Shown here: positions 1,250 through 25,395 of the stretch, piece after piece
Layout: every line of letters starts with the position of its first letter
Numbering within the stretch: position 1 is the first letter of the stretch
IMG/VR virus record: IMGVR_UViG_3300001598_000033
Location: 64,001-128,000 of that record
Length of the DNA stretch: 64,000 nucleotides
DNA from: a virus
Taxonomy: Duplodnaviria > Caudoviricetes
Strand: one strand, 5' to 3'
Position numbers and translations under genes: made by a program
The notes under the pieces: model-generated
Told to the model about the DNA's origin: nothing
Seen by the model: only the letters and a program-made list of their open reading frames with translations
The model's database searches: none

Positions 1250-1582
1250 TTATTCGTACTCAGCGTCAAGCTTATCTATAAACTCATCCCAACTACCATT
1301 AAATTTACTAATTTGGTATTTACCTTCTACTTTACCATTATCATCAATATACACACAAGTGTCAAGCTCACTAGCTGTAAACTTATTAACATTCTTAGGA
1401 GTGTATACACCGAGCATGCCACCAGTAGTTGCAATACAACCATTAGTTAATGACCCGATAACTAATAATCCAATAGTCTCACCATATCTATCCTTATAAG
1501 TAGCGCAATCACCAGCTTTAAGGCCACTAGCTTCGTTTAATCTATTTGAACGAGATTCATTTAAGTATTCTGCAAATTTCAT
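1250..1582 (-). CDS. Hypothetical late protein with capsid-targeting-like N-terminus
   Basis: MKFAEYLNE...RLNE start; late promoter on minus strand at 1613-1620; GGAG RBS. Confidence 0.6.
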   Translation of the reverse strand: MKFAEYLNESRSNRLNEASGLKAGDCATYKDRYGETIGLLVIGSLTNGCIATTGGMLGVYTPKNVNKFTASELDTCVYIDDNGKVEGKYQISKFNGSWDEFIDKLDAEYE

Positions 1583-1623
1583 TTTTAACTCCTTTTTTTA
1601 TATATTTTTATATATTTATAAAA

Positions 1624-2151
1624 TTAACTATTTTTAGCTAGTTCTTTAATTAGTTCTGCAGTACTCTTAATGGTAGCACCATCATCAACTATTATATTAG
1701 TTACTTCCTTAGGACCTTGGTTATTCACCGATTGCGCTTTTGATAGGTTAAGTACTATTGAACTCATATCCCTATAACATTGTAGGTATAATTTCATATT
1801 TTCATTTATTACATTACACAGTGCCGAATAACCTTCTAAAAGCCTTGCATCTGGTTCCATTTCAATTTCCTGAGCCATGCTCTTAAGTAATTTTTTACCT
1901 GTACTTGAGCACTCAGCTAATGTTTCTCTTATGTACTTAACATCATCAATCATATTCTGTAGGTTCAGAACTTCTGCTAAGTTAACATTAGGTGAAGGTT
2001 TCTCAATTTCAGCAGTAACTAACTCTGAACTTTCATCGATAATATCTTCGGTTTCAACCAAAAGGTCATCGACGCAATCAACCTTACCCCTAAAGGCTTC
2101 TGTTATAGAGTTCATTTTTTGTACAAGTCTATCAGCACTATCTTTATCCAT
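1624..2151 (-). CDS. gp16: Terminase small subunit (T4 gp16-like)
   Basis: Helical D..YIRETL segment, EP.ARLLEGYS and C-terminal STAELIKEL typical of gp16; next to gp14 and gp20. Confidence 0.7.
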   Translation of the reverse strand: MDKDSADRLVQKMNSITEAFRGKVDCVDDLLVETEDIIDESSELVTAEIEKPSPNVNLAEVLNLQNMIDDVKYIRETLAECSSTGKKLLKSMAQEIEMEPDARLLEGYSALCNVINENMKLYLQCYRDMSSIVLNLSKAQSVNNQGPKEVTNIIVDDGATIKSTAELIKELAKNS

Positions 2152-2581
2152 CGTAGTACTCCCCTAACTCTTTATCTCTATATAATCCTAAAAGATATTT
2201 TTCTGATTCTTCTAGATCTTCATATATTAAATTTGGGTTATGGTTATGGTTATGGTCGTGTTTTCTTTGACTTCTTATATAATCAATAGTACATTTAAGT
2301 ATTTCATTTTCATCTGAATTAATATCATTATACTTAGAATCATTATCCAATACTTCTTGTGCATTATTCCTACAATCTTCTAAAAATGGAAATTCTGGAC
2401 ATATCCACCCTTCATTTAACCAAATATTAAAATGTACTGTATCCTTTATTTGGTCTACTATTTCATCATTTATAATAGTGCCAGGTTCTAATTTATAATC
2501 ATTATCCAACCATATACGTTGGATAACTCTATACTTAGTTTTACAACATTTACATTCACAATTCATTTTTTTACCACCCAA
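2144..2581 (-). CDS. Hypothetical protein
   Basis: ORF overlapping gp14 and gp16 in one operon. Confidence 0.55.
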   Translation of the reverse strand: MGGKKMNCECKCCKTKYRVIQRIWLDNDYKLEPGTIINDEIVDQIKDTVHFNIWLNEGWICPEFPFLEDCRNNAQEVLDNDSKYNDINSDENEILKCTIDYIRSQRKHDHNHNHNPNLIYEDLEESEKYLLGLYRDKELGEYYDG

Positions 2582-3311
2582 ATGGATCTAACTCATCTTT
2601 ATTAACAACTGATCTTTGAACTTTGAGATTGTTCGCATCATCACTTACTTTAGGTGAAGTTGTTACAGTTTGTGCTAAAGGCTTAACCTCAGCCTCATAA
2701 TCTTGTACTTCTTTGGTGTTAAGTAATGTCTCAAAGTAATTGTCTAAAGGATCATAATGTTCTTGGATATCATCTATTTCCTTAATTTCATTTTCATTTA
2801 CATCTAATGTATTAATAACATCACTGCCTACAATTTCATCATGTAATTTAAATTTGTATGTATTAAGGTTTAGTTTGAAAATGGATTTAGAATCACTGTA
2901 AGCCCATAGATTATTAATGCCGGGGTCTAGTACTTCAGCATTTGTAATTTCCATTACTTTGTTAGAAGGTAATATTATTAAACAAGACATTAACTCATTT
3001 ATACCAAATCCTAATTTCATACATTCTTGAGCGCTGATATGTACGGAAGCTGATTCTGAGTTAGAAAATCCAAATTCACCAAATGCAAATTCACCGAAGT
3101 CAAAATTTTCTGAATTGTCAGGTAAAATATGCACATCAAATATTTGCTTATTATCGGTTTTAATACTACTCCAATCGCCGAATACTTCTTTATCTAAATT
3201 TAGTTTTTCAGTTTTAAGTAATTTAACCTCAATTCCATAAAGTCTAATACATTCACAAGAAATGCTATTATGGAGTTTGTATTCATTTTTATGTGTAAAA
3301 TTGAAATTCAT
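2571..3311 (-). CDS. gp14: Neck/head-closure protein (gp14-like)
   Basis: ECIRLYGIEVKLLKTE, FGD, FGEFGF and C-terminal DPFG motifs. Confidence 0.8.
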   Translation of the reverse strand: MNFNFTHKNEYKLHNSISCECIRLYGIEVKLLKTEKLNLDKEVFGDWSSIKTDNKQIFDVHILPDNSENFDFGEFAFGEFGFSNSESASVHISAQECMKLGFGINELMSCLIILPSNKVMEITNAEVLDPGINNLWAYSDSKSIFKLNLNTYKFKLHDEIVGSDVINTLDVNENEIKEIDDIQEHYDPLDNYFETLLNTKEVQDYEAEVKPLAQTVTTSPKVSDDANNLKVQRSVVNKDELDPFGW

Positions 3312-3333
3312 ATAAAATCCTTTATTTAATATA

Positions 3334-3345
3334 TATTTATAAATA
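3334..3345. promoter_or_regulatory. Overlapping divergent T4-type late promoters
   Basis: Palindrome TATTTATAAATA between divergent gp14 and gp20. Confidence 0.7.
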
Positions 3346-3374
3346 ATAATATTATTAATGATTAAGGATATAAA

Positions 3375-5150
3375 ATGGCTTTAATAACTGAGATGGTTAA
3401 AAATTTCTTTGCTCCTCATAATAATGATAATTCGAAAAAGTCATCCATTGTTAATCCTGAACAAGTATTAAACAATCTATCTGATGATGCAGGTCCTAAT
3501 AGATTTAATGACTTTTTTGATTACCAAAATGAAGTAGGAACATTTGCTGATTTTAACTTAGATGATATAATAGCTAAGCAATCTTCAAAAATAAATTCAT
3601 ATAGACAATGTGCTATGCAAGCTGAAGTAGCTAATGCTATAGACATTATAACTAATGAAATAATGTTTAGTTATGAGGGATTTCCTTTAAAACTTAAATT
3701 TAACGAAACTAATGAAAAAATGCAAAAGACTTTTGAGAAAGCGTTTGAAAAGATTATTAGATTAGGTAAATTTAATAAAAACTTATTTGATTTTGTTAGA
3801 AGATCATATATAGATGGCCAAATGATAGTTCATTGTGAGTTTGATGCTAAATCCACACATAAAGGTATAAAGGCATTAAGAATGATAGACCCTATGGGAT
3901 TTTATTTTGATGCAGAAGATCAAATGTGGAAATACTCTAAGTATTCATCCAATAATCAAACTATGTATTTTAAAGATAGTACATCTAAGGAAAGATACAG
4001 CCCTGAAGAAATAGCTAGATGTGATTTTGGTATATGGCAAGATCACTTATGTTTAAGTTATTTAGAATATGCAATCAAGATCGCTAATATGTTAAAATGC
4101 TTAGAGGATTTATTAGTACCTTTAAGATTCTCTCGTAGTATTTCAAGACGTGTATTTAATGTAGATATTGGTGACTTACCTCAACACAGAGGTGCAGAAT
4201 ACATGAAAAGTATTCAAGAAGCATTTAAGTATAAAAAATTCTACAATAATGAAACAGGTGAAATTTCTAATCAACAACATATCACAAGTATGGTGGAAGA
4301 TTATTGGTTCGCTAATAGATCTGGAGGTAAAGGTACCACTGTAGATTTATTAGATGAAACTGGTAATTTAGGTGAATTAACTGATATTCTTTATTATAAT
4401 AAGAAATTATACAGAGCATTACATATACCAACCTCACATTTGGATATAGATCCAGATGCCGATCATTCATTTAATATGGAACCTTCAGATACAACACAAG
4501 AAGATTTAAAGTTTATGTGCTTTATATCAAGAATAAGAAAGGTGTATAGTGAGTTCTTCAAAGAATTGTTAAAAAGAGAGATTATATCAACTGGTGTAAT
4601 GAAGGAAAAGGAATGGAAGCAAAAGGAAGATGATATTGAGATTATATTTACTAATGAGAACTTATTTATTGAAAGAATGAAATTAGCACAATTAACTAAC
4701 AAAATTGATATATGGAATAATGTTAAAGATTGTGGTGGTGCAGTATTATCTTTTAAGCAATTTATGACTCAGATTTTTGGATTTACAGATCAAGAAATTC
4801 AAGATAATATGAAGTTGATTAAGATTGAATTAGCAGATCCTGCATTTAGAAAATTATATGAAGATGCTGGTTTTATGTTTACTGATGAAGCATTGGATAT
4901 GATGAATGTAGATATTAAGGATTTAGATAATATTGAAAATGGTAATCGTATAATGGCTAAGGATATGGATGATCCAAATTCTGATATGTATGGTAGTAAT
5001 GAAATTGAAAATGACCCAGATTTAGAGAAGGTAAAATCATTTGATGGTATTATTAAAGCTTTAGATGTAGAAACTGATGAAACTGATGAACCCGAAGATG
5101 AAGAAGGCGAGGAAACAGAAGAAGATTCTGAGGATGAAAAAGAAAAATAA
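3375..5150 (+). CDS. gp20: Portal protein
   Basis: RRVFNVDIGDLP, SMVEDYWF.R.GGKGT, LYRALHIP motifs; acidic C-terminal tail. Confidence 0.95.
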   Translation: MALITEMVKNFFAPHNNDNSKKSSIVNPEQVLNNLSDDAGPNRFNDFFDYQNEVGTFADFNLDDIIAKQSSKINSYRQCAMQAEVANAIDIITNEIMFSYEGFPLKLKFNETNEKMQKTFEKAFEKIIRLGKFNKNLFDFVRRSYIDGQMIVHCEFDAKSTHKGIKALRMIDPMGFYFDAEDQMWKYSKYSSNNQTMYFKDSTSKERYSPEEIARCDFGIWQDHLCLSYLEYAIKIANMLKCLEDLLVPLRFSRSISRRVFNVDIGDLPQHRGAEYMKSIQEAFKYKKFYNNETGEISNQQHITSMVEDYWFANRSGGKGTTVDLLDETGNLGELTDILYYNKKLYRALHIPTSHLDIDPDADHSFNMEPSDTTQEDLKFMCFISRIRKVYSEFFKELLKREIISTGVMKEKEWKQKEDDIEIIFTNENLFIERMKLAQLTNKIDIWNNVKDCGGAVLSFKQFMTQIFGFTDQEIQDNMKLIKIELADPAFRKLYEDAGFMFTDEALDMMNVDIKDLDNIENGNRIMAKDMDDPNSDMYGSNEIENDPDLEKVKSFDGIIKALDVETDETDEPEDEEGEETEEDSEDEKEK

Positions 5151-5167
5151 AATTTAATTTTTTTTTT

Positions 5168-5193
5168 AAAATACCCGAAAGGGTATTTTTTTT
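5168..5193. terminator. Intrinsic terminator with GAAA loop
   Basis: AAAATACCC-GAAA-GGGTATTTT followed by T-tract. Confidence 0.8.
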
Positions 5194-5322
5194 GATTTCT
5201 TATATAATATTAATATATTAATAAAAAATATTAATTACACAATTATAATCACACCATTTTAAACTCTATCTAAAATATAAATATAATAAATTATTTTCAA
5301 TTAACTCAATAGGAGAAATTAA

Positions 5323-7728
5323 ATGGCAGAAATGGTTAACCCTGGTGTTTTCATTTCAGAAACAGACTTAAGTCTTATCGCTACAAATGATTCCCAGACA
5401 ACAACAGTTTTCGCAGGTGATTTCGTTAAGGGACCATTAGAAAAATACGTTCAAATTACTTCCGTAGATGAACTTATTGAAACTTTCGGTAAACCAAATA
5501 ACGATAATTATAATGATTGGTACCAAGCATATAACTTTTTACAATATGCATCAAACCTTTTAGTAGCTCGTGCTTGTAACATTAATGGTAATTTAACAGA
5601 CACTACATCTAAATTCTTAGATTTAGATTCATTGGATGGTTATGGTATCCAAGAATGGGGTGCTAGTACTTATGGTATTGCATCTGATGTAGAATGGGTA
5701 TTTACATCTGTTAACCCTAACCTTAAGAAGGGTGATATCATTGTATTTGGTAATGATACTTCTGCAATGATTAATACTAAATATCCTAAGTTCTTAGTTA
5801 TTGATGTAAATGAAGGCGAACGCTTAAATGATGGTGTTTCAGAACATGTTTATGGTATCCTTTTAGACCGCTCACCTAAGAAACTTGTAAATGGTAGTGT
5901 AGTGGATGTAGAAGCTAATGACCCTATTTACCGAATTGATATTTCATTAAATGGTGTTGCTGAAGCTGTTAGTTACGAATTAACTACTAAGATTAACCCT
6001 GATTGGAAGCAAGTAAAATCAGCAAATGGTAAAATTTACAAGGCAAATATTGATGTTCCTAATTTCTTAGATGGTACTTCTTATTACAACCCAGAATTAA
6101 AGAATAGTGTTGTAACTAAAGTGGATGTTGATACTGGTGAATATGTAAATGAAACAATCCCTTATTTTGAAGTAAATGTACCTGAAAAGTCTGATGAAGC
6201 ATTCTTATTTGAAAATAATATCCAGATTAAGAACGATGATCATTTTGATTTAATCAACCCAGTTATTAAAATGTCTTTAGCTACTTCTAAGTTAAAGTTC
6301 TTTAGTAAGACACCTGGTACTGAAGATGCTAAATACAAGATTTGTATTGCTTTACCTAGCGACTTTGCAGTGAATGATACAAGATTTATTGGTAATCATT
6401 GTTCAAGATATGCTTTTGAAGGTATTACATTAGATGGTTTGTTTGAATATGTACCTCAGTTAGGTAGTGCTCAGATTGCTGTAGTTGTGTTAGATGGTAT
6501 TGAAGGTGAAGTTAAGGAAACATTCTTATGTTCTTTAGATCCTACAGAAGTTGATTCATATAACAATTCAATGTACGTAGAAGATGTGATTAACCGCAAT
6601 TCTAAGTTAGTATACGTTAAGGATAATATTGCCGTACCTGCTTTATTAACAACTGTAGAAACAATATATAAGGTAGATGGTACACCTGAAGTTATCGGTC
6701 AAGATGCTGATGGTAATGATGTTTACAGAACAAGAACTGTAAAGGTGCCTAATATTGCTTCTTATACATTGGTATATGATTCTGTAAATAATAAATACTA
6801 CGGTAGAACATTAGAATTTAGTTGCTCTCATGACTCTGGTATTCAGGAAGATGATTTAATTGATGCATATGAATTATTCAATAATAAAGAAGATTTAGAT
6901 GTTGATTATATTATAGGTAATGAATTAGATAATGGTTCAAGTGCTTTAAGTTTAGCAGAGTTCCGTCAAGATTGTATTGCTTATATCGGTATTCCTAAGG
7001 AATATAAGAATAAGTCAGTATGTATTGGTGAAAGAACTAATAATGCTACAACAAATATTGTTAAGTTCAGAAACTCAGTAAATTACAATACAATGTGGTG
7101 TGCGTTACATGGTAATTACAAGTACCAATATGACCGTTATAACGATACTTACAGATGGATCAATATTGCAGGCGACTGTGCGGGTTTAAGAGCTAAGTGT
7201 ACTGTTGAAAATGATGCTTGGTGGGCAAGTGCTGGTTTGGATAGAGGCCAAATCAAGAATGTTATTAAGTTAGCATATGCACCTAACCAAACACAAAGAG
7301 GAACACTATATACTAATGGTGTAAACCCTGTTGTTACATTCCCAGGTGAAGGTACAGTACTTTGGGGTCAAAAGACAATGTTATCTAAGAGTTCTTCATT
7401 TAACAGAATTAACATTCGTTGTTTATTCAATACAATTGAAAGAGCTTTAGCTGAAATGTCTCGTTACTCAGTATTTGAATTTAACGATTCATTTACTAGA
7501 AATAAGGTTGTTTCAACAATTAAACCTTACTTAGCGCAAGTACAAGCAGGTCGTGGTATCCAAGACTTCAAGGTAGTATGTGATACTTCTAACAACACAG
7601 CACAAATTATTGCTGAGAATAAGTTAGTGGTAGATATTTACATTAAGCCAACTTATGTAGCTGAGTTTATCCACTTACGCTTCTTCAATGTTGGTACTAA
7701 CGATTTTAGCACAGTTGTTACTGAATAA
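5323..7728 (+). CDS. gp18: Contractile tail sheath protein with large insertion
   Basis: PGVFISETD, FGKP.NDNY, WWASAGLDRG, LWGQKT, FNRINIR.LF, IYIKP motifs. Confidence 0.95.
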   Translation: MAEMVNPGVFISETDLSLIATNDSQTTTVFAGDFVKGPLEKYVQITSVDELIETFGKPNNDNYNDWYQAYNFLQYASNLLVARACNINGNLTDTTSKFLDLDSLDGYGIQEWGASTYGIASDVEWVFTSVNPNLKKGDIIVFGNDTSAMINTKYPKFLVIDVNEGERLNDGVSEHVYGILLDRSPKKLVNGSVVDVEANDPIYRIDISLNGVAEAVSYELTTKINPDWKQVKSANGKIYKANIDVPNFLDGTSYYNPELKNSVVTKVDVDTGEYVNETIPYFEVNVPEKSDEAFLFENNIQIKNDDHFDLINPVIKMSLATSKLKFFSKTPGTEDAKYKICIALPSDFAVNDTRFIGNHCSRYAFEGITLDGLFEYVPQLGSAQIAVVVLDGIEGEVKETFLCSLDPTEVDSYNNSMYVEDVINRNSKLVYVKDNIAVPALLTTVETIYKVDGTPEVIGQDADGNDVYRTRTVKVPNIASYTLVYDSVNNKYYGRTLEFSCSHDSGIQEDDLIDAYELFNNKEDLDVDYIIGNELDNGSSALSLAEFRQDCIAYIGIPKEYKNKSVCIGERTNNATTNIVKFRNSVNYNTMWCALHGNYKYQYDRYNDTYRWINIAGDCAGLRAKCTVENDAWWASAGLDRGQIKNVIKLAYAPNQTQRGTLYTNGVNPVVTFPGEGTVLWGQKTMLSKSSSFNRINIRCLFNTIERALAEMSRYSVFEFNDSFTRNKVVSTIKPYLAQVQAGRGIQDFKVVCDTSNNTAQIIAENKLVVDIYIKPTYVAEFIHLRFFNVGTNDFSTVVTE

Positions 7729-18118: not shown

Positions 18119-20743
18119 ATGTATAAAATAACTGTTTTTAATTCTCAAAAGACTCAAGGAAAAAGACCTATAAGTCCATATGGCGATGAAACATTTGATT
18201 TTAGAACAATCGAAGTTTCAGAACCTATGGATTTATACAGAATCTTAAGTAAAGAGTTTATTCTAAATATTTCATTGGATTTAAGTGAAACAAAGCGATT
18301 AAGAAGACGTAAGCAAGACTTGGAGCAGTATTACCCTTCAACTACAAATTATGTCATTATTGACGTGGATCATGTTAATTCTAAAGAAAATCAGATTAAA
18401 ATACTTAATTATTTTAAGAATTATAAATGTATTCTGGGTGAATCCCGTAGTTGTAATAATATAGATAACTTTAATTTAAAAGGTTTCTTATTTTTAAAAC
18501 CTATTGAAATCTCTAAATTAAGACCATTATTAGAACAATTACACGATGATTTAATGGAGTATGGAGATATTGATTTAAGTCCATCTCACAAAGCAAAATT
18601 AAATGCTCCTATGAATAAAGTATCCGTTCTATTAGAATCTAATATGAATGAGTACGAATTCATATTAAGACTTAAAAATGTTGATAAAAAAGCATTTAAT
18701 AATTTAATTGATCTAAATGATCTAAAAAGTATTCCTAAGGATATTGATTTAACTAATATAGATAGTATTGATAAATTATGCCTTAAGGTATTTGAATCAT
18801 TAGGATTTGAAGCTTTAAAAGCTAACGGTAATTGTATTATTTTTAAACATGATTCAGAAACTAAAAGTCCGGGTGGATTTTATTGGTTTAAAGATAATCC
18901 TTATGTTATGAACCACTATAACGAATTAAGAAGCATTAACTTATTCGAGCAAATAGTGAAAATGCCAGAAGCAAAGGAATTACTAAAGAAACAAATAAAT
19001 TATGATAATGAATTATTAAAATATAATACTAATACTAATTTAATAAGTGTAAATTTGCCTTACCTTACAATTACAGATGAAATTAAAAGTCATATAGATA
19101 CATTTTTAGCAAAGAATGATGGATTATTTAGTATTAAAAGCCCTATGGGTACTGCAAAATCAATTATAATAGATGAAATTATTAGACAAGCTAAATGTAA
19201 TGATTTGAGGATAATGATATGTTCTAATAGAATTTCAGTTGCGCAAGATTTTAGTAAGAAATATGGTATTAAGTTATATAATAGGGATCAATATAATCCA
19301 GGTGATTCTCTGATCGTACAGTATGACAGTTTATGGAAATACAATATAAGATTATTTGATGTTATTATATTGGATGAATTTGTATCAGTAATGCTACATG
19401 CTAGAAATAACTTAACTAATTCCTGTATTAACTTATCTAAATTATTTGCTTGTTTAAGGAAGAAATTAGTTATTGCAGATGCATTCTTAACAGGTTATGA
19501 AAATAATTTATTAAGTTTTAAGAAAGACAATGTATATATGATACAAAATGATTACAGAGATGATACTAAACTATATGAGTACGAAAATTTTAATTGTTTT
19601 ATACAAAGCGTACTAATACATTGTAAAAAGTATAAAGCAACTATTAGTTGTACATCTTTAGTAACTATTAAAGCACTTAAAAAATTATTGGAGAAACATG
19701 GGTTAAAGGTAATAACATTAACATCAGAAACACCTCAAATAACTAAGGATTTAATATATAAATTATTTGAAAATGATGAAAATAATAAGTACGATGTACT
19801 TATATATAGCCCTACATTAACTGTTGGAGTATCAAATTTAAATGATGTGGATATCCATTTCCATTATGATACATCCAATACTTGTGACGCTATTAGTTCA
19901 TTGCAAATGATTAAAAGAACAAGAAGAGCCAAAGAGATACATTATTTTATTAAAAATACTATTAATTATAATTTAAAAACATCTTTTAATGAAATAAAAT
20001 CAGAATATATGAAGAATGTTGGCAAACAAATAGAATTAAACTTTTTATTTGAGTTAAATGATTATGGTGAGCCTAAATTAAGTAAATTGGGAAAAGGTGC
20101 TATATTTATTGATTTATTTAGAAATATATTAGAGTTTAATCATAAAAATTCATTTATATATTTATTACAATATCAATTTAAGAATAAACCAGAATTAGTG
20201 TCAAAGAGATATGAAAGTAATGTATTATTACCATACATAAAAGAAGTGAAAGATGACATTAAAATGGAAAATAAGGAATTGGTAGATGAGTATATATTAT
20301 TATCTGGAGATGACATGGATATATCTAAATTTGAAAATAATAATATGTTCGATATATTATTTGACTTAGAAAAGTATATTATTAAAGATATTCCATTGGA
20401 TATTAAAAAGGAAATATTATATAAGGAAATTGAACATAGAGGATTTATTGATAAATGTAAACGATATAATATAATAAGTGAATATTCAAGAACAATGGAT
20501 AAACAACCTATACAAATTGAAATTTCTAACGATATATTAAATGATATCCAAAAAGTAAGTTTTTGGAATGATGTATTGAAGGTTGTGCAAATCCCATTAG
20601 AAGATGAATATAAAATTAAGGATGTGCCATCAAATCTAAAGAAAATATTAGATGAATGTGGATATAAAAAGCTTTCAAAAAATTGTGAAAGATATTATGG
20701 AGTTGAGAAAGAAGTAATGGAATATAAGGATTATATATGCTAA
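18119..20743 (+). CDS. UL9/origin-binding-protein-like SF2 helicase
   Basis: IKSPMGTAKS, IILDEFVS, IADAF, YSPTLTVGVS, LQM..R.R motifs. Confidence 0.7.
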   Translation: MYKITVFNSQKTQGKRPISPYGDETFDFRTIEVSEPMDLYRILSKEFILNISLDLSETKRLRRRKQDLEQYYPSTTNYVIIDVDHVNSKENQIKILNYFKNYKCILGESRSCNNIDNFNLKGFLFLKPIEISKLRPLLEQLHDDLMEYGDIDLSPSHKAKLNAPMNKVSVLLESNMNEYEFILRLKNVDKKAFNNLIDLNDLKSIPKDIDLTNIDSIDKLCLKVFESLGFEALKANGNCIIFKHDSETKSPGGFYWFKDNPYVMNHYNELRSINLFEQIVKMPEAKELLKKQINYDNELLKYNTNTNLISVNLPYLTITDEIKSHIDTFLAKNDGLFSIKSPMGTAKSIIIDEIIRQAKCNDLRIMICSNRISVAQDFSKKYGIKLYNRDQYNPGDSLIVQYDSLWKYNIRLFDVIILDEFVSVMLHARNNLTNSCINLSKLFACLRKKLVIADAFLTGYENNLLSFKKDNVYMIQNDYRDDTKLYEYENFNCFIQSVLIHCKKYKATISCTSLVTIKALKKLLEKHGLKVITLTSETPQITKDLIYKLFENDENNKYDVLIYSPTLTVGVSNLNDVDIHFHYDTSNTCDAISSLQMIKRTRRAKEIHYFIKNTINYNLKTSFNEIKSEYMKNVGKQIELNFLFELNDYGEPKLSKLGKGAIFIDLFRNILEFNHKNSFIYLLQYQFKNKPELVSKRYESNVLLPYIKEVKDDIKMENKELVDEYILLSGDDMDISKFENNNMFDILFDLEKYIIKDIPLDIKKEILYKEIEHRGFIDKCKRYNIISEYSRTMDKQPIQIEISNDILNDIQKVSFWNDVLKVVQIPLEDEYKIKDVPSNLKKILDECGYKKLSKNCERYYGVEKEVMEYKDYIC

Positions 20744-21183
20744 TAACAAAAATAAATGAATCGTTTAGTTATTGTGATGGTACTAAAGAAGAATTAAAAA
20801 TTGCACTTGATCACCTTAAGATATATGACCCAAGCACTAAGTATGATAGATTAGTACAGTTAGGTTTAAGAAGTCCATACAAGTGCTTTGGCAGTATGCA
20901 ACAAGGTAAATTATTAATATATAATGGTCATGCTCATTTAGTGGATAATACATACCAACAACCTACCTTTAAAGATGATGTTATTGAATTCAAAAATATA
21001 TTAAAAGATATGAACTTACCGTTTGAGCCATATGATTACCAAATTAGGGCAGTAGGTTATGCTTTGTTATATAAGAGGGCATTACTAAAATCTTGCACTT
21101 CATGTTTGGACCCTAATACAGAAATAGAAGTTGATATCCCTGGATATACAGAACAAGAAATAAGGGAAATGCTAGATGAATAA
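20737..21183 (+). CDS. uvsW: UvsW helicase fragment 1 fused to split intein N-part
   Basis: PYDYQ..AV...L..KR.LL..CTS, then intein block A CLDPNTEIEV. Confidence 0.9.
   Translation: MLITKINESFSYCDGTKEELKIALDHLKIYDPSTKYDRLVQLGLRSPYKCFGSMQQGKLLIYNGHAHLVDNTYQQPTFKDDVIEFKNILKDMNLPFEPYDYQIRAVGYALLYKRALLKSCTSCLDPNTEIEVDIPGYTEQEIREMLDE
21103..21180 (+). other. Split intein N-fragment (26 aa)
   Basis: CLDPNTEIEVDIPGYTEQEIREMLDE directly after the Walker A half-site. Confidence 0.85.
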
Positions 21184-22136
21184 TTGTTTAAAAAATAAAT
21201 CTGAATCTTATAAAATATGCTCCAAATATTTTAATAAGAATCAATTATTGATTTGGATAAATCTTTTTGGAAGTTTAACGCAATTAAAACTATTATTGAA
21301 ATTAAGATTATCACATAATTTACCTATTGATTTTCTACGATTTAAAGAAATAAACCGTAGAAAAAAGAATGATAAAGCTGTAACATTAAAAAAATATATT
21401 TTATATTATGAATATAAAGCACATAAAATTATATAAAGAATATGTTAAATCAAAATGTAAAGGTTGGCATCGACCAGGAATAAATCATGATTCCAAATCT
21501 TTAGAATTTTGTATTAAAAAATTCGGCAATGAGAAAGGAAAAGAAGTGTATAAACAAAGGTGTTTTGATTGTGGTAAATCTACAAGAATACAATATTTTA
21601 TTGATAAAGGTTTAACAGAAGATGAAGCAAAAATTGCTTTAAAAGAAAGACAATCAACCTTTAGTCTTGAAAAATGTATTGAAAAATATGGTGAAGTAGA
21701 AGGTACTAAACGTTGGAAAGAGAGACAAATTAAGTGGCAAAATACTTTAAATTCAAAATCTGAAGAAGAAATTAAAAGAATTAATCTATTAAAATCTTCA
21801 GGTAAAAATAACGTAACAACAACAAATGGATATTGTTTATTATATTATATACATTTTTATAATGTCGAAGATAATTTCAATGTTTGGAAAATAGGAATAA
21901 CTGGGAAAAGTGTTGAAGAAAGATTTAATTTAAAACTATTAAAAATGCATCATAATTTAAATTATGAAATTAAATTTATTCAAAAATATAATTCTGTTGA
22001 TGAAGCATATTCAAAAGAACAATATATTTTAAGTGCTTTTAATGAAAATAGAGTTTATACAAATTATAATGGTTTTTTAACAACAGAAACTTTTAATAAA
22101 GATGTTTTGGAAGGATATTATGAAACTAACATATAG
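21176..22136 (+). mobile_element. Free-standing homing endonuclease gene with C-terminal GIY-YIG-like domain, broken into two frames near 21410-21430
   Basis: CI.K(F/Y)G...G repeats; LYYIHF...WKIGIT..SVEERF...E..IL; ORFs 21176-21436 and 21408-22136 overlap out of frame. Confidence 0.7.
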
Positions 22137-22464
22137 ACAAATTCATAAATTATTGGATAAAGGCATTGAAATGTTTGTTGATAGCCCAACTGGTAAAAAG
22201 AAAATTCTAAATAAATTTTCTAAAATGTCTGAAGGCTATATTATTAAGTATGATGATAATACTGAAACAAATTGTGCAGTTGCACATAATATGATTTTTA
22301 ATGGTATTTTAAAAGGAGCCTCTGAAATTCAAGTTGGTGATATTGATGATTTATCACATAAAAAAGTTATTTCAAAAACAAAAATTCCAGAACAAGAATA
22401 TTTAGATTTTGAAATTTCGGATCCGAATGGACTTTATATTCAAAATGGAATAATACACCATAAT
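22120..22464 (+). other. Split intein C-fragment (115 aa)
   Basis: V.SP.G, block B CAVAH, block F YLDFEI, block G NGIIHHN followed by +1 Ser. Confidence 0.9.
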
Positions 22465-23454
22465 TCTGGTAAAAGTCTAGTTATCTCCATGATTCTCGAG
22501 TATTTCAGAAGGAAAGGATTAAAGGGTGTATTAGTAGTTCCAAATATTAACTTACTAACACAATTCAAATCAGATATTGAGAGTTATGGACTTAACGATT
22601 TATATAATGAAATCCAAGTACATGGTGATGGTAATAAATCTAATTTTGATACAGTGCTAACCATTAGTACTTGGCAATCATTGGTTGATGAAAAGAGAAC
22701 TAATTTTGATTTTATTATATGTGATGAATGCCATCGATTCGCTTCGGATGTTACAAGTGATATTATTCAAAGATCGTATAACACATCAATTAGATTAGGT
22801 TTTACGGGGACATTACCCGAAAATCCTGTAGATAAGATGATGTTATTAGGGCTTTTTGGCGAACCTAAAACAGTTATTACTTCTAAAGAGTTAATTGAAA
22901 GAGGTTTAGGTTGCCCTGTAAGTATAAAGAGTATAATTTTGAATTATAATAATGTAAGCAAGGCAGAATTTAGAGAATGTACCGACTACCAAAAGCAACT
23001 TCAATACATAATTGACCATCAAAGAAGGAATGAAATAATAGTTAGGTTATGTACAGGGTTATCATTAAAGAACCAAAATTCATTAGTGTTATTCCAACGT
23101 ACCAACCACGGTAAACAATTATTTATTGATATTATGAAAACATTGTATCCAGAGGTGAATGTTGAGAATAAGGATATAGTAGGTAAAAAATCGTTGGAGT
23201 TCCAAAAGCAATATAATGTATTCTTTTTGAATGGTGAGCAAGACTCAAAAACCCGCGAAGAAGTACGACATATTATGGAAAACAACTTTATAAGAATAAC
23301 ATTAGAAGACGGAACATTATTAAATATACCTGAAGATGATGATGTTAAATTAACTACTGGCATAAATATTAAAGCAAAAGATTTAAAAGAAACTGATGAA
23401 ATATCGGACGAGTGGCTAAATGAACAAAAAATGTTATTACGTATATCAAATTAA
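22120..23454 (+). CDS. uvsW: Split intein C-part, UvsW helicase fragment 2 and Hint-like C-terminal tail
   Basis: RBS and ATG at 22120; HHN|SGKS; VVP...L..Q, STWQS, DECH, GFTGT, HG..L; tail ITLEDG...KAKDLKETDEI. Confidence 0.9.
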   Translation: MKLTYRQIHKLLDKGIEMFVDSPTGKKKILNKFSKMSEGYIIKYDDNTETNCAVAHNMIFNGILKGASEIQVGDIDDLSHKKVISKTKIPEQEYLDFEISDPNGLYIQNGIIHHNSGKSLVISMILEYFRRKGLKGVLVVPNINLLTQFKSDIESYGLNDLYNEIQVHGDGNKSNFDTVLTISTWQSLVDEKRTNFDFIICDECHRFASDVTSDIIQRSYNTSIRLGFTGTLPENPVDKMMLLGLFGEPKTVITSKELIERGLGCPVSIKSIILNYNNVSKAEFRECTDYQKQLQYIIDHQRRNEIIVRLCTGLSLKNQNSLVLFQRTNHGKQLFIDIMKTLYPEVNVENKDIVGKKSLEFQKQYNVFFLNGEQDSKTREEVRHIMENNFIRITLEDGTLLNIPEDDDVKLTTGINIKAKDLKETDEISDEWLNEQKMLLRISN

Positions 23455-24447
23455 AAATATATTAACTGGTAGAAAATATATAGGAAGTAGGGGTTGCTAC
23501 GGCGACCCCCTAAATATTTAGGGGTTAAATATTTTTCAAGTTCAACTGATAAAGATTTTATAAATGAACAGAAGAAAAATAGAAATAATTTTGAATATAT
23601 TATTATTAAAAAGTTTGATAATAGGGATGATGCTATTTTATACGAAAGTGAGCTTCATTTAAAATATGATGTAATGAGAAACCCAGATTTTTATAATAAA
23701 GCAAATCAAGGTAAAATTAATGGTAAATGGGAATCGCCAAAAAATCAATTTTGTAAATTTCATACATATAAAGAAGTATATGGTGAAGAGAAAGGTGCAG
23801 AGTTAGCAAAAAATCATAGTAATGTACTGAAAGGTAAACGATTTAGTGAAGAGCATAGAAAAAATTTGGCAAATTCTATTCGCAAAAGAGTAAAAGGCAA
23901 GACACTTGAAGAGATATATGGAATTAAAATGGCTCAAGAAATAAAACAAAAATTAAAGGCTCCGAAGTCAGAAGAAACAAAGAGAAAAATATCTGAAGCC
24001 AGAACTGGATACAAATGTACGGAGGAAGCAAAGCAACATATTTCTGATGGGATAAGAAAACTCCATGCAGATCCAGAATATAAAAAGAAATTCACAGAAA
24101 CAATGACAAGAGTAAACCAAAATGTTGATAAAAAAGAAAAAGCGGGAAAAGTTATAAAGGAACTTTGGCAAACAGATGAGTATTTAAATAAAATGAAAAA
24201 TAGAAAACACAGGAGATGTAAGGTAATTGAAGTTACATACCCTAACGGTGATGTTAAAACCTTTAATGGTTTTGATAAAATGTGTGAAGACAATAATTTT
24301 AATAAAACTATTGTTAGAAAGTACCTAAAATCTGGTGATGTTATTCCTAAATATATTGGTGTTAAGAAATCAGTAACATTTTCCACAGATTATATAAATT
24401 TAGAAGGTTATAAATTTGTTTTAAAAGGATATACTAATGAAAATTAA
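23420..24447 (+). mobile_element. GIY-YIG (Seg-like) homing endonuclease with NUMOD3-like repeats; -1 frameshift near 23506-23513
   Basis: ATG at 23420 reads MNKKCYYVYQIKNILTGRKYIGSRG; a second frame continues YLGVKYFSSS...E..LH...FYN; SEEHR and SEETKRKISEA repeats. Confidence 0.85.
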
Positions 24448-24754
24448 AAAAATTGAAAGAATGAGCCCAATCCTTGTAAGTAATACAGCCTTGTTATCAA
24501 CAGGGGTATCCATAAAGGCGCTTAAAAATTTAATTTTAGCTTCACCGATGAAGGCATTCACCACAGTATCTCAAAGCCTTGGAAGATTGATGAGATTACA
24601 TAAAGATAAAAAGGAAGCATTTGTATATGACATAGTTGATAATTTCAGTTTTAGAAAACCTAGTGGGATTTTTTGGAAACAATACCAACACCGAATTGAA
24701 AGTTCGTATAATCCGGAAGATTTTGGAATTACAGAAACAACTATTAATTTATAA
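24437..24754 (+). CDS. uvsW: UvsW helicase fragment 3 (motifs V-VI)
   Basis: STGVSIK.L..LILA, QSLGR.MR, VYDIVD; short MKIKKIER leader. Confidence 0.9.
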   Translation: MKIKKIERMSPILVSNTALLSTGVSIKALKNLILASPMKAFTTVSQSLGRLMRLHKDKKEAFVYDIVDNFSFRKPSGIFWKQYQHRIESSYNPEDFGITETTINL

Positions 24755-24814
24755 TTAATTTATAATATTATATTATATAAAAATACTAAAAAAAATTTCA
24801 ATTTTTTGAAAAAA

Positions 24815-24898
24815 AATTTAAAAAGGGGTTGATTTTTATTTTAAAGTATGCTATAATATATACATAAAGATAAGGAATTAAAGAAAACTTAAGAGGTA
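24815..24898 (+). promoter_or_regulatory. Repeated early promoter unit, copy 2
   Basis: TTGATT(24829)-17-TATAAT(24852), same leader and GAGGTA. Confidence 0.85.
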
Positions 24899-25395
24899 AT
24901 GAATATGATGACAGTAAACAAATCAGAAGTTGAAAATGAAATTAACGCATTGTTTGAAGAACTAGTACCACCAATGGGTAAGGCAGACACAGTGGCTGGC
25001 GAAATTATCAGAGCTACTTGCAAAATTGTATACCGTTGGTACAACGATGGGGATTGCATTGATCGCTCTTACGGCAAGGAAGTTTTAAATGCCCCAGCAA
25101 GATATCTTTGCGCAGTATGCAAGGGTGAAGTTGGTGATTATATTCGAAACACTCTCTGGGTGAGCTTTACTATGAAGAAGAATTAGTAGAATTACAAAGA
25201 TTAGTTTTGGTACATATTGAAAATCACCCAGAATTAATGACAACAGATAACAAATTGGATATGTACGATGACTTCCAATACACATCAGATACTTGGTATT
25301 CAGAAGATGACTATGACGGAGATGATTGGAACGAAGACGATGACTATGAATGGAGTGACCCATTCGCATACAACAACGATGAAGATGATGAATAA
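24899..25395 (+). CDS. Hypothetical early protein with acidic tail, apparently frameshifted at ~25158
   Basis: LVP..GKADTVAGEIIRA..YRWYNDGD; one extra G joins it to LYYEEELVELQRLVLVHIENHPEL. Confidence 0.55.

Follow-up and report, generated by a model that had tools for sequence, protein, structure and literature searches.

The window analysed here is a stretch of 64,000 nucleotides from a virus of the Caudoviricetes (IMG/VR record IMGVR_UViG_3300001598_000033, positions 64,001 to 128,000), in which one UvsW-type helicase is encoded by three genes on the + strand (20737–24754). At the second junction between these genes, the upstream fragment ends in an acidic extension (the 'tail'), the downstream fragment begins with a short basic extension (the 'head'), and a GIY-YIG homing endonuclease gene lies between them. 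We consider it fairly probable that these parts belong to a mobile cassette, that tail and head are derived from a split intein, and that the pair acts as a non-covalent clasp at this junction. A non-splicing half-intein joining the two fragments had been put forward in the original prediction, which was made from the letters of the window alone.

The interrupted uvsW gene

All three fragments are assigned by sequence to the UvsW-type family of superfamily 2 (SF2) helicases, because they produced Pfam ResIII, DEAD and Helicase_C matches together with a family-profile match to T4 UvsW (2OCA, E = 4.5e-15). The UvsW_N domain and adjoining UvsY and UvsX genes were present in relatives of the split helicase. 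The features of the locus are listed below, with IntN and IntC denoting the N- and C-terminal pieces of a split intein and a slash marking the boundary between intein and host.

20737–21102, + strand: uvsW exon 1
20737–22467, + strand: context of junction 1; exon 1 followed by an intein in the P-loop (Walker A), genuine but atypically split
21103–21180, + strand: junction-1 IntN, 26 aa (CLDPNTEIEV...)
21176–22136, + strand: junction-1 endonuclease gene, frameshifted, between IntN and IntC
22120–22467, + strand: junction-1 IntC, 115 aa, ending HHN/S (then GKS), with a weak match to the C-terminal end of Pfam Intein_splicing
22468–23274, + strand: uvsW exon 2, from the SGKS Walker A motif to ...EEVRHI (Pfam ResIII, 1.6e-16)
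23275–23286, + strand: MENN codons, the first past the DNA breakpoint in the alignment with relative L012
23287–23451, + strand: tail, the C-terminal extension of fragment 2, homologous to inteins from block B to the end of IntN, without TxxH
23420–24447, + strand: SegE-like GIY-YIG homing endonuclease gene in two frames (23420–23521 and 23494–24447), both pieces weakly matching Pfam SegE_GIY-YIG
24425–24429, + strand: ribosome-binding site AAGGA, 7 nt upstream of the fragment-3 start codon, read from the sequence
24437–24463, + strand: head MKIKKIERM, the N-terminal extension of fragment 3, corresponding to the first strand of phage IntC pieces
24464–24754, + strand: uvsW exon 3, with motifs V and VI in the second RecA2 half, up to the stop codon

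Exon 2 contains the remainder of RecA1 and the first half of RecA2. The open reading frame (ORF) of fragment 2 (22102–23454) runs through ...REEVRHIMENN into a 55-residue tail, FIRITLEDGTLLNIPEDDDVKLTTGINIKAKDLKETDEISDEWLNEQKMLLRISN, and ends with a stop codon at 23452–23454; the conserved acidic patch and Trp of the tail (KDLKETDEISDEW) are encoded at 23380–23415. The ORF of fragment 3 (24437–24754) opens with MKIKKIERM and then returns to helicase sequence at SPILVSNTALLSTG, which starts SPILVSN. Close homologues without the break (P0002, P0003 and others; 486 aa, 88–89% identical) read straight across this point as ...RHILEDIPNAILLSN..., and tail and head are therefore true insertions in the helicase. 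MENN takes the place of LEDI in uninterrupted relatives and is replaced by MEDK in relative L017; judged from the alignment, these codons are probably the left edge of the cassette.

The point at which the helicase sequence had been said to break off, after REEVRHIMENN, and the start of fragment 3 at MKIKKIERM were verified, both in sequence and in coordinates. The tail had also been read correctly, but not its end, which was placed at ...DEI; a conserved SDEW(L/I) comes after that position. This motif was kept across the family in the alignment of tails and was helical in the model of a fused homologue described below.

Tail and head as a conserved family

An exhaustive HMMER search of 1.84 billion proteins, using a profile of the end of the RecA2 N-half plus the tail, showed that about 60 N-fragments of diverse UvsW-like helicases end in the same tail, with the consensus ..I.L(E/F)....I......V.L.NG..K.AKD(L/I)T..DD(I/V)(S/D)D.W(I/L). 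The tail of the window scored 58 bits against a profile of the tail alone (E = 6e-17, within the 154-kb genome), and this search found no second tail in the 154-kb genome. An exact MKIKKIE start was found in 46 of 79 fragment-3 homologues (95–120 aa), and a looser head pattern in 66 of the 79, with helicase parts only about 50–65% identical to that of the window. Given the tail-profile score and the recurrence of MKIKKIE, neither extension can therefore be attributed to chance. Net charge averaged -4.0 over 63 tails and +2.6 over the first nine residues of the head, and so the N piece is indeed acidic and the C piece basic, as originally described. One UvsW N-fragment, P0171 (516 aa), had two tail-like segments; that at residues 220–259 was internal, at the RecA1 site, and apparently re-fused, while that at residues 468–514 was C-terminal, at the RecA2 site.

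Codon comparisons showed that the pair is under purifying selection. Across 22 conserved codons of the tail, the window and locus L005 differed by eight synonymous changes and a single, conservative non-synonymous change; their endonucleases were only 40% identical. Head codons likewise varied synonymously between loci (ATT/ATA/ATC, AAA/AAG). The pair was retained after loss of the nuclease gene in L003, which has a 31-nt spacer, and in L006. An SDEW(I/L) helix was common to tails, and the true IntN pieces P0221 and P0222 had no such helix. Fused forms, in which tail and head lie in one chain, scored 29 and 11 bits against the tail profile, compared with 50–70 bits for split tails; although only two related fused sequences contribute to this comparison, their lower scores fit what is expected if the constraint comes from finding a partner in trans.

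Descent from split inteins

Over its tail columns only, the tail-containing profile matched the block-B region of Pfam-verified inteins (E = 1e-5 to 1e-3, in the same 1.84 billion proteins). Every match confined to the tail columns that was examined proved to be either another tail or an intein, and in those scanned with Pfam the matched stretch fell within the block-B region of a verified splicing domain. These inteins included those of the T4-like portal proteins P0203, P0209, P0210 and P0248, with three or four inteins each, as well as P0219, P0222, P0225, P0247, P0200, P0245 and P0221; the single matched stretch of P0225 (E = 2.5e-4) was inside its Intein_splicing domain. P0005, with an intein at the DExH site, had been found as a helicase homologue rather than via the tail, and scored 18.6 bits with the tail-only profile. 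The supposed relationship to Hint domains was thus recovered by profile search, P0005 included. TxxH was present in all true inteins that the profile matched, where the tails have none. When the window tail alone was compared with PDB sequences, only chance rows for PCNA were returned (E about 0.8), and BLASTP of the window tail against the intein-bearing P0005 gave nothing.

The head was identified with the first strand of IntC, because the mini-intein P0200 continues with VKIKKII...VYDIL directly after its tail-like part, and because true IntC pieces of this gene pool begin MKLIKKEEI (P0204) and MIKIKKIK (P0231). A Hint origin of both tail and head is supported by these comparisons.

Tail, a linker of 15–20 residues and head were found within one helicase chain in P0204 and P0224. 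A natural fused tail-linker-head (L015:2361–2588, 76 residues) was modelled alone with AlphaFold2 (AF2), using the tails as the alignment, and the model had a mean predicted local distance difference test (pLDDT) score of 87.6. In it, four strands were accompanied by a helix spanning the conserved SEW(L) motif and by a short strand after that helix, and the head formed the last strand. In a search of 48,161 PDB representative chains made independently of Foldseek, the top 23 rows were all members of the Hint superfamily (inteins, hedgehog Hint and a bacterial intein-like domain). The model matched PI-PfuI with Z = 7.1 and residues 41–102 of gp41-1 with Z = 6.0 (61 residues aligned, root-mean-square deviation 3.2 Å), and NrdJ-1 was also among the matches. 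Residues 50–113 of Npu DnaE were aligned, residues 50–99 of its IntN corresponding to residues 1–51 of the model. The aligned part was the middle half of the Hint fold, the N-terminal lobe and last strands having no counterpart, and the earlier phrase 'about half a Hint domain' describes the match to gp41-1 fairly. Foldseek placed inteins in each of its first 37 rows (37/37), though no match reached E <= 0.001. As far as a predicted model allows, these structural hits are consistent with the sequence mapping and agree with it in register; they were almost exclusively to Hint domains, a structural comparison with which had been asked for in the original prediction. According to the gp41-1 structure paper, this region holds the second pseudo-C2 unit (10.1101/546465), and it also holds the charged strands lying between the IntN end and the beginning of IntC, from which association starts (10.1101/546465; PMC2677866).

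Mobility with the endonuclease

Sequence comparison with relatives showed that tail, GIY-YIG gene and head form one mobile cassette at junction 2. The arrangement was that of a fractured gene: a host gene broken at a conserved site, its halves separated by an endonuclease ORF and all parts on one strand. The same three-gene layout was found in L017, in which both endonuclease genes are intact (323 and 342 aa) and the 342-aa gene lies between tail and head. Between the window and L017, identity was 91% for the tail, 93% for the endonuclease gene and 96% for the head, against 72–81% for the helicase exons; the junction-1 intein cassette, at 86–94%, showed the same contrast to the exons. When the window was aligned with the uninterrupted gene of L012, DNA identity stopped right after CAT ATT (His-Ile) at the cassette edge, and resumed only about 20 codons into exon 3; these first codons of exon 3 (about 20) have also diverged from close relatives, as in a co-conversion tract. 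A contiguous version of the gene, for which relatives were to be inspected, was present in P0002, P0003 and L012, and uvsW was contiguous at this site in Vibrio Va1-like and Campylobacter CP220-like cultured phages.

Intact homologues of the GIY-YIG gene were found in L005, L008 and L017; the SegE_GIY-YIG matches of the window endonuclease were below the curated cut-off. Each of the two endonuclease genes within uvsW of the window differs by one base from its intact counterpart in L017 and is hence out of frame, and the host fragments remain open. In the junction-1 endonuclease gene there is an extra A within an A-run at 21425, and in the junction-2 endonuclease gene one base is missing near 23515 relative to the intact 342-aa gene of L017; either could be real decay or an assembly error. 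The site near 23515 is inside a perfect palindrome, CCCCTAAATATTTAGGGG, at 23507–23524.

Loss of splicing

Catalytic elements had been reported missing from the window, and comparison of tails and heads extended this to the family: Cys1, TxxH, blocks F and G and a +1 nucleophile are absent family-wide. The junction in the window reads Asn-Phe, and among 63 tails the first position was variable (F, Y, I, K, L and others), with no conserved Cys, Ser or Thr. [TS]xxH occurred at the block-B position in only one of the 63, the window reading NIPEDDD there. The head, of 7–9 residues, leads directly into a RecA2 strand (MKIKKIEKQNQ/ILVS and similar), with no block F or G and no HN, and the residues that follow it vary (KQNQ/I, RMSP/I, HCGS/I and others), leaving no conserved +1 nucleophile. 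Together, tail and head amount to about 54 residues. With the Cys1 lobe, TxxH and blocks F and G gone, splicing is therefore impossible.

Repair of junction 2 at the RNA level is unlikely. There was no Rfam match at E <= 1 on either strand between 20500 and 25000, the group I intron core included; fragment 3 is equipped with a ribosome-binding site and a start codon of its own; the head is conserved at the protein level; and in L003 the two genes are 31 nt apart and in different frames, with no endonuclease gene and likewise with AAGGA ahead of the head. The RNA splicing that the original prediction had named as a possible objection is unlikely for these reasons. A ribosome hop across the 31-nt spacer of L003 was also considered and rejected, since inspection by eye found stops after every candidate TTA landing codon.

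Recurrence in other sites and genes

Comparison of further loci showed that the pair recurs outside junction 2. A second UvsW site, in RecA1, was occupied by tail and head in L011, P0205 and others, and N-fragments were found to end there. In L011, the region between tail and head (281–1027) did not encode a GIY-YIG enzyme; one pairwise alignment identified an HNH-like motif, HHILP...GG.DDPE, and therefore the pair appears to associate with more than one nuclease family. In L008, a homologous GIY-YIG gene (E = 2e-20 and 3e-38) lies between the same tail and head within a T4-type RNA ligase. The phage DnaE of L006 is in three pieces (1575–6404): its first break carries a true split intein with a GIY-YIG gene, and the next, at the PDxD active-site motif, has tail and head (MKVKSINII) without an endonuclease gene, the genes overlapping by 20 nt. 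P0231 has tail and head in a fragment of a likely ribonucleotide reductase, the host being named from its CxEIxLP motif.

The mobA-split topoisomerase of T4 may use a shortened member of the half-intein pair, although the evidence is suggestive only. The relevant features are as follows.

L018, 3778–3900, - strand: C-terminus of T4 gp39
L018, 2950–2990, - strand: start of T4 gp60

The last 32 residues of gp39 (FTFELNGDTIIVNENDEVQINGKWITVGELRK) matched the tail profile with 12.9 bits (E = 8e-6, in a two-sequence search), gp60 begins MKFVKID, and residues 477–524 of 8yo3_C aligned weakly with the fused model (Z = 2.1).

Upstream of uvsW, the window encodes an 874-aa helicase-like protein (18119–20743) that shares 48% identity with proteins of Vibrio phages Va1, phiKT1024 and pv27, and 33–34% with those of Campylobacter T4-like phages; on account of these similarities, the genome is placed near those large myoviruses.

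Proposed function of the pair

A clasp would have arisen and would work in the following manner. The tail would derive from the C-terminal half of a phage split-intein IntN, from the block-B hairpin to the split site, and the head from the opening strand of IntC. Once translated, the acidic tail and the basic head would pair, as in the first, 'capture' step of a split intein; together with the Trp-containing helix particular to tails, they would fold into a small half-Hint domain hanging off RecA2 that joins the two halves of RecA2 non-covalently. With these held together, the nuclease could therefore occupy an essential gene without destroying it. We infer that tail and head bind each other in trans and that the helicase depends on them.

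Several observations weigh against this interpretation. The window tail had no match to any Pfam intein family at E <= 10; a weak match to Intein_splicing was seen in 2 of 31 tail-bearing sequences (best E = 0.023), perhaps arising from true IntC parts, as in P0235; and the tail-containing family profile, searched against PDB sequences, returned UvsW and other helicases but not a single intein at E <= 1. Only moderate Z scores (5–7) came from the structural comparison, and they belong to a model of a 24%-identical homologue rather than of the two chains of the window; AlphaFold may moreover have been drawn toward intein-like shapes by likeness of sequence. The similarity among cassettes partly reflects recent spread and not selection. 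A three-chain complex prediction, in which the tail was scored as the partner of the RecA2 N-half and fragment 3, gave 0.30 against a mark of 0.32, a value that speaks neither for nor against binding. The halves of the split ribonucleotide reductase NrdA of phage Aeh1 bound each other without their tails, which were needed for higher assembly and activity (PMC3045599), and by that analogy 'clasp' may be too simple a word.

The Aeh1 result also bears on two other explanations. It is unlikely that the extensions are an inert scar, that is, decaying leftovers of a split intein or junk borne by the endonuclease, tolerated because the halves of RecA2 join through their own large interface. Split domains do often reassemble unaided, as Aeh1 NrdA did (PMC3045599); the cassette is young in this lineage, so that its conservation is partly shared ancestry; and the fused proteins P0204, P0224 and P0152 indicate that the insertion can last as a mere internal remnant. 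A scar would nonetheless hardly accumulate eight synonymous changes to one non-synonymous in the conserved half of the tail beside an endonuclease only 40% identical, keep an exact MKIKKIE in 46 of 79 homologues whose helicases are only 50–65% identical, outlive the nuclease gene (L003, L006), or gain a conserved SDEW(I/L) helix that IntN pieces P0221 and P0222 do not have; and the fall in score of fused forms, 29 and 11 bits against 50–70 for split tails, fits relaxed constraint after rejoining. Another explanation, which appears quite unlikely, allows that the half-Hint domain is functional but gives it a role other than a simple clasp between two chains: in higher-order assembly, as an aid to folding or solubility of fragment 2, or in binding a third partner. 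Aeh1 tails acted on assembly of the tetramer and holoenzyme and not on formation of the heterodimer (PMC3045599), the T4 insertion is pendant, was called an 'assembly chaperone' and affected a fused enzyme's activity little (PMC11461880), and the domain is kept in some fused helicases. Set against this, the same pair occurs in unrelated hosts (helicase, DnaE and RNA ligase), which therefore argues for a host-independent role such as mutual binding, and the opposite charges of tail and head mirror the association of split inteins (PMC2677866; 10.1101/546465).

A break healed covalently or in RNA, whether by non-canonical splicing, a group I intron or ribosome bypassing, seems very improbable. 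Phage endonuclease genes do often lie within introns or inteins, and the T4 mobA cassette has a translational bypass (10.1101/2022.08.31.505936). At junction 2, the Rfam search of 20500–25000 (E <= 1) was negative, fragment 3 has its own ribosome-binding site, start codon and a head selected at the protein level, neither the tail nor the head side of the break has a conserved nucleophile, and a Hint active site takes far more than 54 residues; L003, with genes 31 nt apart in differing frames and stops (judged by eye) after any TTA landing site, points the same way. A non-covalent clasp of intein descent remains the preferred reading of tail and head.

Relation to known systems

Fractured genes of phage-like DNA, such as gp41-1 and NrdJ-1, have natural split inteins on either side of a free-standing homing endonuclease gene (Dassa et al. 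2009, PMC2677866). Junction 2 resembles these in its order, with the N-part of the host and an IntN-like piece followed by an endonuclease gene, and then an IntC-like piece and the C-part of the host; in the homology of the pieces and a break where endonuclease domains insert; in opposite charges at the interface; and in a host concerned with replication or repair. A genuine example lies 2 kb upstream, in the same uvsW gene. Unlike fractured genes, junction 2 keeps only the middle of the Hint fold (about residues 41–102 of gp41-1), has no Cys1 or block A, TxxH, block F, block G or +1 nucleophile and so cannot trans-splice, and has added a Trp-containing helix after the acidic patch of its tails.

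In the NrdA-a/mobE/NrdA-b arrangement of Aeh1, oppositely charged tails borne with mobE are essential for activity (Friedrich 2007; Crona et al. 2011, PMC3045599); a degenerate split intein was offered as speculation by the authors, who found no database match for the tails (PMC3045599). As at junction 2, an essential gene is split by a free-standing endonuclease, and unique tails, at a C and an N terminus, came with the insertion. However, the charge polarity of the Aeh1 tails is the reverse, and they act on assembly of a dimer of heterodimers, whereas the tails described here are a large conserved family with demonstrable Hint homology, spread over several genes.

In T4 gene 39/mobA/gene 60, conserved C- and N-terminal extensions (CTE and NTE) always accompany the split, even after loss of the nuclease or re-fusion (10.1101/2022.08.31.505936), and electron cryo-microscopy of T4 topoisomerase II (8YO3) resolved the gp39/gp60 extensions, its 'TOPRIM insertion', as a pendant domain named an 'assembly bracket' (2024, PMC11461880). 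In neither paper are the extensions connected with inteins (10.1101/2022.08.31.505936; PMC11461880). Here too, an endonuclease cassette splits an essential enzyme and the extensions are kept; the T4 element additionally has a 50-nt bypass, and the gp39 tail is shorter, without acidic patch or Trp helix, and only weakly matches the family (12.9 bits; Z 2.1). T4 SegE, a free-standing GIY-YIG endonuclease, targets uvsW (PMC2988022), the same gene as is occupied by the window endonuclease with its weak SegE_GIY-YIG match. SegE, however, adjoins uvsW without splitting it, while the nuclease gene of the window is inside the reading frame, between tail and head.

Interaction tails borne by endonucleases are therefore already published as a concept, and the suggestion that the arrangement had not been described was too strong in view of the Aeh1 tails (PMC3045599) and the T4 bracket (PMC11461880). 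In the literature searched, no paper recognises such tails as one half of a split intein, conserved but catalytically dead, or shows a family of this kind across several genes.

Biological significance

The balance tips slightly towards a more general proposition, that a portable, splicing-dead half-Hint pair, with an acidic tail of about 45 residues and a basic head of 7–9 residues, offers homing endonucleases a third general means, next to introns and inteins, of residing inside essential genes. Carried by GIY-YIG or HNH enzymes, it would have reached UvsW (twice), DnaE, RNA ligase and likely ribonucleotide reductase; the gp39/gp60 tails of T4 may belong to it, and it would amount to a very small natural affinity tag. 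If so, this would give a concrete molecular origin for the tails of endonuclease-split phage enzymes, a question open for Aeh1 NrdA and T4 topoisomerase, and would mean that one lobe of a Hint domain can persist by itself as a module for association once none of the splicing chemistry is left. The related loci suggest a plausible life cycle, from cassette invasion through decay and then loss of the nuclease to re-fusion of the host with an internal remnant. A non-splicing pair of 45 + 9 residues could be used as a compact heterodimerisation or purification tag, and among the helicase, polymerase and ligase genes of phage metagenomes many that look 'truncated' would be recognisable as working enzymes in two pieces.

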